Shown here one piece after another: positions 54,208 through 61,294 of a DNA stretch of 64,000 nucleotides. Location of the stretch: positions 53,277 to 117,276 of the forward strand of contig DZAX01000002.1 of NCBI GenBank assembly GCA_022729705.1, given 5' to 3'. Position 1 is the first letter of the stretch; every line of letters starts with the position of its first letter. This stretch comes from Helicobacter cetorum (GTDB taxonomy: Bacteria; Campylobacterota; Campylobacteria; Campylobacterales; UBA6016). The notes beneath the pieces were generated by a model. It made no database searches. It had not been told where the DNA came from and saw nothing but the letters and a program-made list of their open reading frames with translations. Made by a program: the position numbers and the translations under genes.

Positions 54208-56037
54208 ATGTTAAACGACGAATCATTTGATATACGAAAAGCAAAAATAGAAGAGTTAAAGAGACTATTTCCAGAGGTCGTTACGGAGGGTGGTATAGAC
54301 TTTGAAGCCCTCAAAGCGACTTTGGACGGTGACATCGACGCCGCAAAAGAGAAATACCGCTTTACATGGAACGGCAAATCGGAGCTTTTTTCTCTCATAA
54401 ACCGTAAAACAAAAGGTGCGTTAAAGCCAGATGTCAAAAAAAGCGGTGGTGAACAGGCTTTTGAGTCGGCTGAAAATATCATCATAGAAGCCGATAACCT
54501 TGAAGCCATGAAGCTACTGATGAGCGCATATCACCGTAAAGTGAAGATGATATACATAGATCCGCCCTACAACAAGCAAAAAGACTTCGTATATCCCGAT
54601 AACTGGTCTGACCCGCTGGAGAGCTATCTGATGCAAACAGGGCAAAAGGATGAATTTGGGCTAACGGCTAGCTATCAGGACAAGACGGGGCGATTGCATA
54701 CCAACTGGCTAAACATGATATATCCTAGACTCTATCTAGCTAGAAATCTACTAAGAGACGACGGCGTGATATTTGTCTCTATCGACGACGATGAGGTACA
54801 CAACCTGCGAAAAGTGATGGATGAGATATTTGGGGAGGAGAATTTTGTAGCCAATGTTATTTGGCACAAAAACTATGCTTCCGCAAACGATGCAAAAGGG
54901 TTTTCAAATGTGCATGACTATGTCATGGTCTATCAGAAAAGCTCATCATTTAATAGAAATTTACTACCAAGAACTGAAAAACAAAACTCACTATACAAGT
55001 ACGATTCTAATGACGGAAAGGGGCTGTGGCGTTCTGATAATCTAACAGTTAAAACATATTCCAAAGAATATGACTATCCAATAATAAATCCAAACACTGG
55101 GAAAAGCTATAATCCAACCAAAGGACGATGCTGGATTACTAATAAAAATACAATGCAGGAATGGATTGATACAGGAAGGGTTTTTTTTGGTCAGGATGGC
55201 AATGGCGCACCGCAATTAAAGCGTTATATTAACGAGGTACAGCAGGGTATTATCCCAATTACATACTGGTCATATGATGATTGTGGGCACAACGATGAGG
55301 CAAGAAAAGAAATTAAAGAACTGTTTGAGCACCCTCCGTTTGACACCCCAAAACCCGTTAAGCTTATCCGTCGAATGCTTGAAATTGGTACAAAGACAGA
55401 CGAGGACAACATCGTCTTAGACTTCTTCGCAGGTAGCGGCACAACTGCACACGCCGTAATGGCTCAAAACATTGAAGACGGTGGAAATAGAAAATATATC
55501 CTCGTCCAAATCCCAGAATACACGCCAGAAAATAGCGAAGCTAGAAAAGCTGGATATGAGACTATAGCCGACATCACCGCAGAGCGAGTGCGACGGGTGG
55601 CAAAAAAGTTAAATTACAAAAACGGCTTTCGCTACTTCCGTCTTGATAGAAGCCATTTTAGAGTTTTTGAGCAGATGATACACGAAAAAGGCAAGTCAAA
55701 AGAAGAAGTGCTAAAACTCCTACGCATGAGTATGTTTCATGACAATACTCTAATGGCAAACTGGACTCCGATAGGCGTAGCCTTTGAGATAGGACTCAAA
55801 AACGGTATGTCGCTGACAAGTAAATACAAGGTAGAGAAAAATGGCAAATACAATCTGCACTATCTGACAAGCGAGACAAGAACTTTTGTGTTTTGCTTTG
55901 ATGAGCAAATCAGCGAAGAGATAGCAAAACTACTACCGCAAAACGCAAAATTCGTCTGCCCGGACAAGTCGCTAACGGATAGCGTAAAGCTCAATATCGT
56001 AGCCCAAATCGGGCTGGAAAATGTAGAGACGATATAA
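54208..56037 (+). CDS. mod: type III restriction-modification DNA methyltransferase (Mod)
   Basis: Motif IV IYIDPPYN and motif I FFAGSGTTAHAV (beta-class order), with a central variable TRD-like region. Confidence 0.9.
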   Translation: MLNDESFDIRKAKIEELKRLFPEVVTEGGIDFEALKATLDGDIDAAKEKYRFTWNGKSELFSLINRKTKGALKPDVKKSGGEQAFESAENIIIEADNLEAMKLLMSAYHRKVKMIYIDPPYNKQKDFVYPDNWSDPLESYLMQTGQKDEFGLTASYQDKTGRLHTNWLNMIYPRLYLARNLLRDDGVIFVSIDDDEVHNLRKVMDEIFGEENFVANVIWHKNYASANDAKGFSNVHDYVMVYQKSSSFNRNLLPRTEKQNSLYKYDSNDGKGLWRSDNLTVKTYSKEYDYPIINPNTGKSYNPTKGRCWITNKNTMQEWIDTGRVFFGQDGNGAPQLKRYINEVQQGIIPITYWSYDDCGHNDEARKEIKELFEHPPFDTPKPVKLIRRMLEIGTKTDEDNIVLDFFAGSGTTAHAVMAQNIEDGGNRKYILVQIPEYTPENSEARKAGYETIADITAERVRRVAKKLNYKNGFRYFRLDRSHFRVFEQMIHEKGKSKEEVLKLLRMSMFHDNTLMANWTPIGVAFEIGLKNGMSLTSKYKVEKNGKYNLHYLTSETRTFVFCFDEQISEEIAKLLPQNAKFVCPDKSLTDSVKLNIVAQIGLENVETI

Positions 56038-56044
56038 GGAAAAT

Positions 56045-56611
56045 ATGATGAAAGCTCAGCATTTATTGGAAAAAGATATAGTTAAATCACTCATGCAAGT
56101 GCCAAAGTTTTATATGAACAAGGCAAAACCAAGAGATTTATCTTTTGGTGACATACAGGGAATGCTTAATAAGAAATCAAATAATGCCAATTATGACGCT
56201 ACTGAATTTGTTGTACATGATGGTAGTGGTGAGGAATATATTATTATTGTGCAGGTTGGCACCGATGATGATTTGGATGATTTTAGCACTAGTTTATTTT
56301 TAAAAAGAGATAAAGAGCGGGTTTTTATATGTAGACTTGACTATCATGCTAAACATTTAAGAAAGTGCCGAAGAAACAGTTTTGACGATACGCATGCTGA
56401 CAAATTTCATTTTCATATTCATTGCAAAGAGTGTTACGAAGCAATGGGTGAAAAAGGTATTTGGAATGTTGCTTTTAGTATCAAAAACAAAGAGGATATT
56501 AACCTTGCAAACTTCTTGCATTTTTTCTTTAACAAAATAAATTTAAAAACTAAACAGTATTTTCTTAAAGAGCAAACATTATTGGAGATAACAGATGAAA
56601 TCTCAAATTGA
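56045..56611 (+). CDS. hypothetical His/Cys-rich protein inserted between mod and res
   Basis: 188-aa ORF with HAKHLRKCRRNSFDDTHADKFHFHIHCKECY (possible metal site). It is AT-rich (about 28-30% GC by hand count, versus about 40-43% in mod and res). Confidence 0.6.
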   Translation: MMKAQHLLEKDIVKSLMQVPKFYMNKAKPRDLSFGDIQGMLNKKSNNANYDATEFVVHDGSGEEYIIIVQVGTDDDLDDFSTSLFLKRDKERVFICRLDYHAKHLRKCRRNSFDDTHADKFHFHIHCKECYEAMGEKGIWNVAFSIKNKEDINLANFLHFFFNKINLKTKQYFLKEQTLLEITDEISN

Positions 56612-57380
56612 AGAACTTTTGAAAAAGTTATGTAAAAACTTTACAATAGAAGAAACTAGAAACAAGTTTAAATATAAAATTACCACCCCATTTACACTTC
56701 CATGTGGTGAGCAAATAAGCTTTATAGCACAAATTATAAGCGATAAAGAAATTTTACTTGATGATAAAGCATTTATTTTTAGATATTTTGATCTTAATTT
56801 TTTTGAGCCAAAAAATAGTGCTATAGAGTCAATGGATGAAATTTGTAAAAACTTTGGAATTGCTAGTGGTGACAGTTTTCAGAAAATTATTACTATTGAT
56901 GATCGTTTTTGTGAGTACGATTTTTATGATTACATAAACGCACTTATACGACTATCGGATATTATTTTTTATAAACCAGAACAAAGAGAAAAAAATGATT
57001 TTATTGAGCAGTTGATTAATTATGTTAGGGATGGTTTTGATGTTAAAACAAAATTCTTTTCCTCTGGCGTTAAGCCTTATGATAGTAAGGATGATTTTAA
57101 GGTAGATATAGCTTTATCAACTGATGATAAAAAATGGGTTCTGATAAACGGTATATATAACCAAAATAGAATGTCAGAAATAAATCTTTCTTTGATGTAT
57201 TACAAATTTGAGCATAAATTAGAAATCGAAAGCATTTTGGTTTTTGATAACATGGATGCTTATGTGAAAAAGGGCGGCAAACTAAATAGGCTTTTAAAGT
57301 ATATAGATACTCCTGTTGCCACGTTTGATGATGATGGAAAAGCTAAAATTAAAGAAACATTAGAAAAAAGATTATATTAG
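56595..57380 (+). CDS. hypothetical protein (possibly DUF1828/DUF1829-like) inserted between mod and res
   Basis: 261-aa ORF that overlaps the previous gene by 17 nt and ends 1 nt before the res ATG. The N-terminus YKITTPFTLPCGEQISF...LLDD resembles DUF1828 from memory only. Confidence 0.6.
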   Translation: MKSQIEELLKKLCKNFTIEETRNKFKYKITTPFTLPCGEQISFIAQIISDKEILLDDKAFIFRYFDLNFFEPKNSAIESMDEICKNFGIASGDSFQKIITIDDRFCEYDFYDYINALIRLSDIIFYKPEQREKNDFIEQLINYVRDGFDVKTKFFSSGVKPYDSKDDFKVDIALSTDDKKWVLINGIYNQNRMSEINLSLMYYKFEHKLEIESILVFDNMDAYVKKGGKLNRLLKYIDTPVATFDDDGKAKIKETLEKRLY

Positions 57381-59927
57381 ATGACCCTCCGCTACTCCTC
57401 AAACCTCCCACACCAACAAAACGCCATAAACGCCGTTTTGTCGCTATTTGACGCTCAAATAGCACAAGAGGATAGTTTTGCCATCTTTGACGATGAGGCT
57501 GTTGTTGATAATAGGCTTACGATAGACGAAGAGCAGATACTATCAAATCTGCAAGCGGTGCAGAGCGCAAACAAGCTGCCGCCGAGCGAGAAGCTAGAGA
57601 GCCTTGATTTTAGCCTCGAAATGGAGACGGGGACTGGTAAGACATACGTGTATTTGCGCACGGCTTTGGAGCTTTATATCAGATACGGATGGAAAAAATT
57701 TGTCGTCGTAGTTCCGTCAATAGCTATCAAAGAAGGGGCTCTTTCAAGCTTAGAGGGGATGAGCGCTCACTTTTTGCAGGAGCTAAAAATACGCTACAAC
57801 TACTTTGAGTATAGCTCCGAGCGATTAACGGAACTACGGCACTTCATAAGAGATGACGAGCTTCAAATCATGGTAACGACTCTTGACGGCTTCAAGCGGC
57901 AAAATACAGTAATGCAGAGAGACGATTTGGAAAACTTCTCAGGCTCCCCGCTAGAGTCTCTTGCGCGCACTAGACCTATCGTGATACTGGATGAGCCGCA
58001 AAATATGGAGTCTGACTTGTCAAAGGAGGCTTTGGGGGCTTTAAATCCGCTTTTTGTCCTTAGATATTCGGCGACGCACAAAAATCTATACAACCTCATA
58101 TATAGCCTATCGCCAAAAGAGGCGTTAGAAGCCGGGCTAGTCAAAAAAGTATTCGTAGTGGGTATATCAGAGCAAAAAGTAGCTAGTGAAGCATACATAA
58201 GCGTAGCGGCAATAGAGCGTGACAAAAACAAAAAACTCTTTGCGTCGCTGGAGCTAATCGCAAATCAAAAAAACAGCTTTGTCAAAAAATTGTTTAATGT
58301 CAAAGTAGGCGACACTCTTGCGGACAGGGCAAAAAATAGCGTTTATGATGGTTTTGCGGTTAGCGAGATTAGCTATGCCGATGGATATATATCTTTTGAA
58401 AACGGCGTAAAATTAGTGCTTCATGAGACTAGTGGGCAGGTAAAAAAAGAGATACAAAAAGAGCAGATAAGAGAAGCGATAAAAAAACATTTTGAGACTA
58501 CGAAGGCGTTAAAGCCAAAAGGGATAAAGCCGCTTTGTCTTTTTTTTGTCGATAGGGTGGCAAACTTTTTGGCTGTTGAAGATGGTTGGATGGAAGCCTT
58601 TTTTTGCGAAGCGTTTGACGAGATGAAAGATAGTTTTGCGGAGTTTGCAAATATGGAGGCAAAAAGCGCTTATAAATACTATTTTGCAAAGCGTTCAAAA
58701 GGGTATGTGGACGAGCTAAAGAATAACGACGCCGATAGGAAGGCGGGGAAAGAGGCGTATGATCTGATACTAAAAGGCAAAGAACAGCTGATGAAACCAG
58801 ATGAACCTGTAAGCTTTATATTTAGTCATTCGGCGCTCAAAGAGGGGTGGGACAACCCAAACGTCTTTACCATAGCCACGCTCAACGAGACCAATAGCGA
58901 TTTAAAAAGAAGGCAAATAATCGGGCGCGGGCTCAGGCTATGTGTGGATGCAGAGGGGAAGAGGGTATATGATATAAATATCAATAGACTTAGCGTCGTG
59001 GCAAATGAGAGTTTTCAAAGTTTTACGGAGAGCCTGCAAAAAGAGTATGCACAGACGGGACAAACGGGCGGCGATGTCGGCGACGGTGGTCTTAAAAAGC
59101 AGAAAGCGACGCTAAAAAAAGATATTCTACTATCGGACGAATTTAAAAAACTATGGTCGTTGATAAGTCGAAAAACTGAGTATCATGTAAAACTGGAAAC
59201 CGAAAAATTTGTTACAGACGTTATCGAAAAGCTAAATGAGATTGAGGTTTGCAGACTTAAAATCAGAATAGAAGAAGGTGGTGTGGGCGAGGGAGTTGAT
59301 GAGGAGAGACAAAAGGTTATAAACATAATACCGCGCATTTCAGATATAGTAGGCGAGTTAACCACAAATACCGGACTTACGAGGGCTACTATAATTTCTA
59401 TTTTGGATAAAATAGATTTGGAGAGATTTGTTGATGATTTAGACAGTTTTGCAAAAAAGGCTAGCCTTATCATCAACGATGAGAAAGCCATGTGTCTAGC
59501 AAGCGGAATATCATATAAACAGCTTGATGAATGGTGGTTGCAAGAAAATATCTTTGATGATGAATTTGAAGATTTTGAGTTGGTTGAGATGAAAAAGAGT
59601 TTATATGACTATATCAAATGCGACTCAAGCACTGAGAAACTATTTGCAAAGTGTGCCGACAATAGATTTGGGCTTACTATTAAACTACCAAAACGATTTT
59701 ATATCCATACGCCGCTTGGCAAATATAGTCCGGATTGGGCGATAGTCGCAAACGATAAATCAAAAACGTGTTTTGTAGTAGAGACAAAAGCCGCTGAGCT
59801 AGATAGTGAATTAAGGGGTGTTGAGGGCGCCAAAATAAAATGCGGAAAGAAGCATTTTGGAGTGCTTGACGTTTTATATAGGCAAAATAAAAAATGCGAA
59901 GATATACTAACAGAGCCCTCACGCTGA
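57381..59927 (+). CDS. res: type III restriction endonuclease (Res) helicase-nuclease subunit
   Basis: Helicase motif I METGTGKTYVY, motif II ILDEPQNM, and a C-terminal PD-(D/E)xK-like SPDWAI...VVETKA. Confidence 0.9.
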   Translation: MTLRYSSNLPHQQNAINAVLSLFDAQIAQEDSFAIFDDEAVVDNRLTIDEEQILSNLQAVQSANKLPPSEKLESLDFSLEMETGTGKTYVYLRTALELYIRYGWKKFVVVVPSIAIKEGALSSLEGMSAHFLQELKIRYNYFEYSSERLTELRHFIRDDELQIMVTTLDGFKRQNTVMQRDDLENFSGSPLESLARTRPIVILDEPQNMESDLSKEALGALNPLFVLRYSATHKNLYNLIYSLSPKEALEAGLVKKVFVVGISEQKVASEAYISVAAIERDKNKKLFASLELIANQKNSFVKKLFNVKVGDTLADRAKNSVYDGFAVSEISYADGYISFENGVKLVLHETSGQVKKEIQKEQIREAIKKHFETTKALKPKGIKPLCLFFVDRVANFLAVEDGWMEAFFCEAFDEMKDSFAEFANMEAKSAYKYYFAKRSKGYVDELKNNDADRKAGKEAYDLILKGKEQLMKPDEPVSFIFSHSALKEGWDNPNVFTIATLNETNSDLKRRQIIGRGLRLCVDAEGKRVYDININRLSVVANESFQSFTESLQKEYAQTGQTGGDVGDGGLKKQKATLKKDILLSDEFKKLWSLISRKTEYHVKLETEKFVTDVIEKLNEIEVCRLKIRIEEGGVGEGVDEERQKVINIIPRISDIVGELTTNTGLTRATIISILDKIDLERFVDDLDSFAKKASLIINDEKAMCLASGISYKQLDEWWLQENIFDDEFEDFELVEMKKSLYDYIKCDSSTEKLFAKCADNRFGLTIKLPKRFYIHTPLGKYSPDWAIVANDKSKTCFVVETKAAELDSELRGVEGAKIKCGKKHFGVLDVLYRQNKKCEDILTEPSR

Positions 59928-61135: not shown

Positions 61136-61294
61136 TTATTTAGTAGCGTTCTTTTCAGTTTTAGTAGCGTTAGCTTCTTTTTTAACTTTTTTAACTTTTT
61201 TAGTAGTATTTTTTTCAGCTTTAGTAGCGTTAGCTTCAGCAGCAAATGCAGATGTAAGACCAAGAGCGATTAGAAGAGCGACAACTTTTTTCAT
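61136..61294 (-). CDS. 52-aa secreted Lys-rich repeat protein
   Basis: Hand translation: MKKVVALLIALGLTSAFA/AEANATKAEKNTTKKVKKVKKEANATKTEKNATK*. It has a signal peptide and an internal repeat. The ORF-track entry 61063..61263 is in another frame of the same strand. Confidence 0.6.
   Translation of the reverse strand: MKKVVALLIALGLTSAFAAEANATKAEKNTTKKVKKVKKEANATKTEKNATK

Follow-up and report, generated by a model that had tools for sequence, protein, structure and literature searches.

The window analysed here is a stretch of 64,000 nucleotides (nt) from Helicobacter cetorum (assembly GCA_022729705.1, contig DZAX01000002.1, positions 53,277 to 117,276 of the forward strand), and it carries a restriction-modification (R-M) operon of type III in which two genes, orfX and orfY, lie between the methyltransferase gene mod and the restriction gene res (Table 1). 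Mod and Res make up a complete type III pair (PF01555, PF04851 and PF19778; PADLOC), and mod, orfX, orfY and res form one tight, co-oriented operon. After the TAA stop codon of mod come an AAGGA ribosome-binding site and the bases ATGATG, so that orfX may start at 56045 or at 56048; on sister contigs, gene callers picked the form of 187 amino acids (aa). At the next junction, where orfX and orfY overlap, a GGAG lies 8 nt before the orfY ATG, and the TAG stop codon of orfY directly abuts the ATG of res. These gene positions, the 17-nt overlap, the abutment and the single operon had been described in an original prediction made from the DNA letters, and the coordinates of the open reading frames (ORFs) and their junctions confirm all of them. 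A scan of the + strand found no terminator-like site within the operon, and promoter and terminator scans of the operon gave matches no better than those in shuffled sequence.

The two inserted genes differ from their neighbours in composition, as had been estimated by hand on short samples. The GC fraction is 0.310 in orfX and 0.275 in orfY, versus 0.416 in mod, 0.418 in res and 0.406 in the whole window, and a 300-nt profile falls to a minimum of 0.26. Such a low GC content, together with the extreme rarity of the family, could indicate a decaying or functionless AT-rich insert of selfish or spurious ORFs, but this explanation is scarcely credible. Both ORFs are intact in every allele at 39-100% identity, their order and overlap are kept, ribosome-binding sites are present, and 46 residues of OrfX (across six sequences) and 84 residues of OrfY are invariant in the family alignments. 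Judged by their sequences, orfX and orfY are real genes rather than spurious ORFs, because long ORFs are improbable by chance at 27-31% GC (in the 27% GC DNA of the insert in particular) and because intact homologues at 39-75% identity keep both order and overlap.

Table 1. Features of the mod-orfX-orfY-res operon, and cargo found between mod and res in loci that encode related Res proteins (L numbers designate the loci compared).
Feature	Position	Strand	Description	Evidence
mod	54208-56037	+	609 aa, type III DNA methyltransferase, first operon gene	Pfam N6_N4_Mtase 2.7e-36; PADLOC MTase_III 5.7e-180, full length
Mod target-recognition domain, hypervariable	54838-55461	+	aa ~211-418	identity comparison with L004, L005, L009
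orfX	56045-56611	+	188 aa, cassette gene 1, PDC-M24A-like; alternative start 56048	ORF
OrfX invariant His/Cys cluster, putative metal site	56330-56434	+	aa 96-130	8-sequence alignment
Tract without differences among same-species contigs	56376-57430	+	3' third of orfX, all of orfY, start of res	
orfY	56595-57380	+	261 aa, cassette gene 2, PDC-M24B-like; 17-nt overlap with orfX	ORF
OrfY N-terminal DUF1828-like domain	56685-56951	+	aa 31-119	Pfam PF08861, Foldseek
OrfY C-terminal alpha/beta domain, weakly restriction-endonuclease-like	57042-57329	+	aa ~150-245	Foldseek
res	57381-59927	+	848 aa, type III restriction helicase-nuclease, operon gene 4	Pfam ResIII 8.6e-14, RE_endonuc 4.5e-28; PADLOC REase_III 5.3e-201
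L015	cargo end 6000, res start 6001		mod-res cargo: PD-T4-4 A+B	1e-154, 1e-15
L017			mod-res cargo: AAA_21 + DUF4276	
L018			mod-res cargo: Fic + HTH (helix-turn-helix)	
L019			mod-res cargo: BrnT-BrnA	
L026			mod-res cargo: ApeA (HEPN)	
L029			mod-res cargo: DUF3800	
L035			mod-res cargo: ABC-ATPase + HEC-01B	3.7e-62
L039			mod-res cargo: PHP-ATPase + Schlafen AlbA_2	
L041			mod-res cargo: trypsin-like peptidase + AbiU2-HEPN	
L053			mod-res cargo: PDC-M19B	1e-60
L057			mod-res cargo: DUF559 nuclease	
L066, L077			mod-res cargo: MNT-HepT	
L074			mod-res cargo: Schlafen AlbA_2 + unknowns	
L033, L047, L058, L063			mod-res cargo: no family match	

The X-Y pair is exceptionally rare. Among 5.8 billion non-redundant proteins, OrfX is represented by three clusters and OrfY by six, and an OrfY profile query of the same proteins returned no further relatives. 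An OrfX profile search of 1.84 billion representatives gave eight matches at E <= 0.001, about five of which are true relatives. The pair was absent from 185,579 species-representative genomes and from 2.9 M viral contigs, and tblastn detected it in neither PLSDB plasmids nor GenBank phages. A search of metagenome contigs added one short contig with the pair.

Despite this small number of instances, the context of the pair is uniform. orfX and orfY always occur together, with X directly upstream of Y and overlapping or abutting it wherever a contig holds both, which answers the question raised at the outset of whether the two genes travel together. In the source species, the order mod-X-Y-res is found on six contigs. 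In two further allele groups (L009-L014 with L095, at 45% identity for X and 56% for Y; L097 and L098, at 47% and 64%), the pair follows the Mod C-terminus and precedes Res where the contig reaches that far. In locus L008 (X 39%, Y 51%), a Type ISP R-M enzyme is encoded 120 bp upstream of the pair; in L007 (X 61%, Y 75%), the pair is followed by a 75-aa ORF and then by an ApaLI-like endonuclease and a methyltransferase. In L099 (Y 53%), a gene whose product starts MSIGTVIKSIQRIMREDAGV begins 3 nt after Y. In tblastn searches with this peptide, all 15 matches hit the N-terminal end of a gene annotated as a type I M subunit or an N6-DNA methylase; each E-value is marginal and the annotation is unanimous, and the gene is probably an HsdM-type methyltransferase. 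Every informative context of the pair is thus an R-M system: type III (three cassette alleles), Type ISP, type II ApaLI-like or HsdM-type. The 75-aa ORF of L007 (positions 1919-2146) has no family match, and might be a third gene of the cassette or encode a controller protein.

Comparison with catalogued defence genes places both proteins with a single candidate system. In PADLOC, OrfX matches PDC-M24A alone (E 0.001, 17 bits, profile positions 7-159 of 166) and OrfY matches PDC-M24B alone (E 0.0076, 13.9 bits, positions 1-157 of 256 only). Across the families, PDC-M24A is matched by six of eight OrfX members (best E 1.9e-6) and PDC-M24B by five of six OrfY members (best E 2.4e-8). The adjacent, co-oriented A>>B order of PDC-M24 is that of X followed by Y. 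As two independent proteins match both subunits of one candidate in the right order, which is unlikely by chance, X-Y is read here as remotely homologous to PDC-M24.

Phage defence candidates (PDCs) are untested candidates that were collected because they lie embedded in Hma, BREX, DISARM or type I R-M systems, an approach termed 'guilt-by-embedding' (Payne et al., bioRxiv 10.1101/2024.01.29.577857). PDC-M24 corresponds to cassette CAS_00098 (FAM_00129>>FAM_00065), which has 153 listed instances and carries no functional annotation; type III systems were outside the published embedding screen (Payne et al., bioRxiv 10.1101/2024.01.29.577857). In the literature searched, no paper discusses PDC-M24. 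Like PDC-M24, X-Y is a two-gene, co-oriented A>>B cassette embedded in defence operons, and the A subunit is covered at near full length. Unlike PDC-M24, which was derived from embedding in BREX, DISARM and type I R-M, X-Y resides in a type III system, and the 153 listed instances of PDC-M24 compare with zero members of the X-Y branch in the species genomes searched. Given the remoteness of the similarity, a routine PADLOC run would not be expected to report the X-Y locus.

OrfX has no match in Pfam, NCBIfam or PHROG. An alignment of eight family members at 22-97% identity identified the invariant residues D74, L84, R97, L98, D99, Y100, H104, R106, C108, F113, H122, H124, C127, C130, F157, F161, I165 and N166. 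The His/Cys cluster of OrfX, already pointed out in the original prediction, is therefore real: H104, C108, H122, H124, C127 and C130 are invariant in members down to 22% identity. Its form, H-x3-C followed by H-x-H-x2-C-x2-C, suggests a metal site. The AlphaFold2 (AF2) model of OrfX is usable, with a predicted local distance difference test score (pLDDT) of 75 and a predicted template modelling score (pTM) of 0.77, and its loop 105-117 is of low confidence. Low-confidence loops are usual for metal sites that are modelled without the metal. Foldseek found no significant structural neighbour of the model, the best E being 0.36 for the PDB and 0.16 for BFVD.

OrfX also contains the motif HFHIHC, for which a HIT hydrolase was considered and rejected. 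Alignment by hhalign against HINT1 and FHIT sequences gave probabilities < 1%, Pfam gave no match, and no HIT structure was among the 50 best Foldseek matches listed. In distant relatives of OrfX, the third His of the motif is replaced by Tyr.

The N-terminus of OrfY had been likened to DUF1828, and this likeness finds weak support. All six OrfY family members match DUF1828 (PF08861) at E <= 1, with a best E of 8.1e-5, and the N-terminal domain of OrfY aligns with essentially the whole 91-position profile (positions 1-90), although its own score of 17 bits (E 0.0075) lies under the 22-bit Pfam gathering threshold. Correspondingly, Foldseek matched the N-terminal half of OrfY to 3cxj (prob 0.99) and to the secretion-chaperone-like fold of 3epu. 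To our knowledge, DUF1828 is a family without known function. Neither DUF1829 nor any other C-terminal family was detected in OrfY.

In the C-terminal domain of OrfY, Foldseek returned Kpn2I (prob 0.85), Shedu SduA, McrC, Hna and Mus81, all weak matches at E >= 0.01, from a model with pLDDT 69 and pTM 0.46, so that any likeness to a restriction-endonuclease-like PD-(D/E)xK fold is faint. Residue D171 is invariant on strand 169-175, and the next strand, 180-187 (W181, V182, N185 and G186), lacks an acid-x-Lys arrangement. A variant catalytic site might conceivably be formed from E195, K204 or E212. If the C-terminal domain is a nuclease, BrxU/GmrSD in BREX would offer a plausible analogy, as an embedded, independent nuclease that complements a methylation-based system; unlike BrxU/GmrSD, X and Y have no DUF262 or DUF1524 homology, and a nuclease activity of X-Y is conjectural. 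The models of both proteins were built from shallow alignments, and a sequence search of solved structures with the OrfX and OrfY profiles found nothing meaningful, its sole matches being a designed 'CAP repeat' that lacked any significant stretch and a chance match over 25 residues.

The genealogy of the cassette was compared with that of its flanks. Relative to L009, nucleotide identity is ~85% in the conserved part of mod and into res, and it drops to 42-70% exactly between the mod stop codon and the res start codon, with a second dip, to ~45-55%, over the Mod target-recognition domain. At the protein level, the L009 group shares 88-95% identity with the window in Res and 88-100% in the Mod C-terminus, but only 45% in X and 56% in Y, with sharp edges at the gene boundaries. 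The cassette has a low GC content in three of four allele groups.

The converse is observed within the source species. In L004 (122-2026) and L005 (3-1901), the Mod recognition domain differs from that of the window, whereas X-Y is 99.3-99.9% identical in nucleotides, and Mod outside the recognition domain, X-Y and Res are together 97-100% identical. Mod residues 211-418 share 7-40% amino acid identity with L004 and L005 and with L009, against 90-100% in the rest of Mod. As the recognition domain has been swapped while X-Y has hardly changed, the cassette is not matched to target specificity. An accessory specificity role, which had been one of the functions first put forward, is disfavoured by this near-identity and by the presence of the pair beside four kinds of R-M system. 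In the same comparison, type III specificity domains appear as alleles shuffled within one population. A second hypervariable patch is found near the Mod C-terminus at 55800-55950 (aa ~539-598), with 33-35 differences per 150 nt relative to L001 and L004, where adjacent bins have 0-9.

Variation among same-species contigs is likewise uneven. The res gene differs by 2-3% within the population, with 36 synonymous and 9 nonsynonymous differences in 848 codons relative to L001. From 56376 to at least 57430, the sequence matches L002 and L004 at every position and departs from L001 at just two, 56590 and 56591, and orfY carries no substitutions versus about 25 expected at the res rate. The 5' two-thirds of orfX contain 6-9 nonsynonymous and 3 synonymous differences. 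The uniform tract points to a cassette that has recently swept or recombined. On these comparisons, the genealogy of the cassette is decoupled from its flanks in both directions, a pattern that agrees with recombinational exchange at the conserved termini, mod 3' and res 5', possibly with a recent sweep, and X-Y is best described as an exchangeable cassette and not as part of the enzyme.

A survey of 80 loci that encode related Res proteins at 34-54% identity (L015-L094) found X and Y in none of them, and the objection anticipated in the original prediction, that the pair might be a conserved, integral part of this Res/Mod subfamily, finds no support there. In the 54 loci with mod upstream of res, the intervening gap is <=60 bp in 31, 60-400 bp in 4, and >=400 bp with co-oriented ORFs in 19. 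The assumption that mod and res are normally adjacent therefore holds for 31 of 54 loci and is not the rule in this Res subfamily, since 19 of 54 carry cargo. Absence from the related loci, direct mod-res adjacency in many of them, atypical composition and divergence decoupled from the flanks together bear out the earlier proposal of a laterally inserted two-gene cassette.

X-Y might alternatively encode integral accessory subunits of the R-M enzyme, acting in specificity, assembly or regulation, for example by delaying Res expression relative to Mod during establishment. Tight packing between mod and res with no terminator, which implies linked expression, and the placement of the pair at this point in three type III alleles would agree with such a role, but its absence from all 80 related loci, and the direct adjacency of mod and res in 31 of the 54 with mod upstream, speak against it. 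The same slot holds unrelated cargo elsewhere, the pair also accompanies Type ISP, type II and HsdM-type genes, X-Y persists unchanged (99.3-99.9% identity) across swapped Mod recognition domains, and Pfam reveals no helix-turn-helix (HTH) or C-protein signature in either protein. This explanation is accordingly regarded as very unlikely.

The cargo found in the related loci (Table 1) consists of proteins that are mostly unrelated to one another, and all ORFs in these mod-res gaps gave E > 0.05 against the X and Y profiles in hmmsearch and are unrelated to the pair. By its family matches, this cargo is overwhelmingly defence or toxin-antitoxin (TA) genes. Because unrelated, mostly defence or TA cargo fills the same junction, X-Y occupies a recurrent slot for accessory immune genes. 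PD-T4-4, HEC-01, ApeA, MNT-HepT and BrnTA resemble X-Y in slot, orientation and tight junctions to mod and res; they differ in being unrelated to X and Y in sequence, and several have demonstrated or well-understood activities. Homologues of Res at ~35-41% identity also occur in archaea, including Nitrosopumilus (L020, L023 and L025), DPANN (L021, L024 and L027) and Methanoculleus (L044), and their presence there and in many bacterial phyla indicates that the Res subfamily has spread widely by horizontal transfer.

Bona fide TA pairs (BrnTA and MNT-HepT) in the same slot of relatives raise the alternative that X-Y is itself a TA or addiction pair, which stabilises the R-M operon or the cassette without a direct anti-phage role. 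The pair is a two-gene, overlapping, translationally coupled unit with a patchy, horizontally moving distribution, which would suit such a role. At 188 and 261 aa, however, its proteins are large for a type II TA system, no antitoxin DNA-binding domain or known toxin or antitoxin family was found in them with Pfam, NCBIfam, PADLOC or PHROGs, and their sole PADLOC link is to a defence candidate. The boundary between TA and defence is itself blurred, and a purely addictive function is considered improbable here.

The constant association with R-M genes bears on another proposal, in which X-Y would be a guardian of the R-M system, silenced by the neighbouring ATP-dependent R-M enzyme and unleashed as an abortive-infection effector by a phage anti-restriction protein. 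The paradigm is PrrC, an anticodon nuclease whose gene is nested in the type IC R-M locus EcoprrI. Like PrrC, X-Y is a non-R-M unit nested in an R-M operon, co-oriented and co-inherited; unlike X-Y, PrrC combines ABC-ATPase and nuclease in one protein and belongs to a type I locus, and guarding by X-Y is hypothetical. PrrC nevertheless supplies a documented precedent, R-M genes enclose or adjoin the pair wherever its context is informative, three of its four kinds of partner (type III, Type ISP and HsdM-type) are ATP-dependent translocating or sliding enzymes, and the fast-evolving N-terminus of OrfX would suit a sensor in an arms race. On the other side, X and Y gave no ATPase, PrrC or RloC match in Pfam, NCBIfam or PADLOC, and no homology to PARIS. 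In L007, the pair follows an alpha/beta hydrolase gene and neighbours an ApaLI-like system of type II. Its constancy across Mod recognition domains, and its occurrence beside unrelated R-M enzymes, make a specific physical partnership less obvious. As a sub-case of a defence function, guarding is a tentative and rather unlikely explanation.

Among the functions listed in the original prediction, an independent defence system that uses the R-M operon as a carrier, or a TA or abortive-infection module, fits these observations best. The favoured explanation, held with somewhat better than even confidence, is that X-Y is an autonomous two-gene defence or abortive-infection candidate that hitchhikes with R-M systems and acts as a complex. 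In this proposal, the pair sits in the mod-res junction and is presumably co-transcribed and co-transferred with the R-M genes, and the junction would serve as a cargo slot in which cassettes are swapped when the conserved ends of the neighbouring genes (3' in mod, 5' in res) recombine.

The analysis shows the anatomy and rarity of the pair, its behaviour as a cassette, its association with R-M genes, the defence-type cargo of the same slot in other loci and the remote homology to PDC-M24; beyond these, we infer a defence function, complex formation and a division of labour between the two proteins. OrfX and OrfY would probably act as a complex, in view of their translational coupling, strict co-occurrence and parallel divergence. 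OrfX is 39-61% identical across alleles, compared with 51-75% for OrfY, and shows a nonsynonymous excess within the population. Its fast-evolving N-terminal part and its invariant His/Cys site point to OrfX as the putative specificity or sensing subunit, and the site would provide a metal centre that is either structural or catalytic. The scaffold or effector would be OrfY, the more conserved of the two, which combines a DUF1828-like, possibly protein-binding domain with a restriction-endonuclease-like C-terminal fold.

A bolder version of this proposal is speculative, and appears unlikely as a whole. In it, X-Y would be an R-M-linked immune module of a kind not recognised before. OrfX would bind metal and have a fold unseen in PDB and BFVD, its fast-evolving N-terminus would sense either phage anti-restriction factors or the state of the ATP-dependent motors of type III, ISP and I R-M systems, and it would then license OrfY, a DUF1828 protein with a degenerate nuclease fold, to abort infection; the mod-res junction of type III systems would be a dedicated, recombination-driven slot for second-line defence.

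Several observations weigh against a defence function for X-Y. The hidden Markov model scores of the window proteins against PDC-M24 are weak (E 0.001 and 0.0076), with 157 of 256 positions covered in PDC-M24B, and the DUF1828 score is below threshold. The resemblance of OrfY to nucleases is weak and depends on a model of low pTM, the canonical D...(D/E)xK motif is not identifiable in the family alignment, and no effector chemistry is recognisable in OrfX or OrfY, the former having no significant structural neighbour. Most contexts of the pair are short metagenome contigs, and the sample is small, with about six independent alleles. The slot also holds plain TA pairs, and position alone cannot separate defence from addiction. 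Recent recombination could have produced the uniform tract with no selection involved. Lastly, anti-phage activity has the standing of a candidate for PDC-M24, and so it does for X-Y.

The surroundings of the operon are housekeeping genes, with xseA and a LOG-family gene upstream and mnmA downstream, and the R-M operon is therefore a solitary insertion and not part of a larger defence island. Scans found no tRNAs and no Rfam matches, and no transposition signature was found, direct and inverted repeats flanking the cassette being at chance level. A 14-nt inverted repeat with 93% complementarity brackets the cassette at 55919-55932 and 57473-57486; its arms lie ~110 nt inside mod and ~95 nt inside res, and a rough estimate places it at about chance for an AT-rich stretch. 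No simple-sequence repeat pointing to phase variation was found in mod. In res, an A-rich 27-nt tandem repeat (58436-58487; 1.9 copies, score 69) encodes a Lys/Glu-rich stretch of Res. Downstream, on the - strand at 61136-61294, a small ORF, called as a 52-aa gene in sister contigs, has a signal-peptide-like N-terminus followed by Lys-rich 'ANATK/EKN' repeats, and may encode a small secreted protein or a lipoprotein.

The embedding of genes in defence operons has already been described (Payne et al., bioRxiv 10.1101/2024.01.29.577857), and X-Y is probably a divergent relative of a catalogued candidate. The case stands out for an OrfX without functional or structural precedent, the extreme rarity of the pair, the clean exchange of the cassette and the busy mod-res slot of type III systems. 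In about a third of this type III subfamily, the mod-res junction is filled with defence or TA cargo, which extends 'guilt-by-embedding' to type III R-M. The mod-res junction is a simple, well-bounded slot for the mining of further candidates, 4 of its 19 cargo sets (L033, L047, L058 and L063) having no family match, and the contrast of its conserved flanks with swapped cassettes is a clear case, found in nature, of modules being exchanged within an operon. Should X-Y prove to be a working defence, it would add a two-protein system to the prokaryotic immune repertoire, and would give a first functional handle on the PDC-M24 and DUF1828 families.

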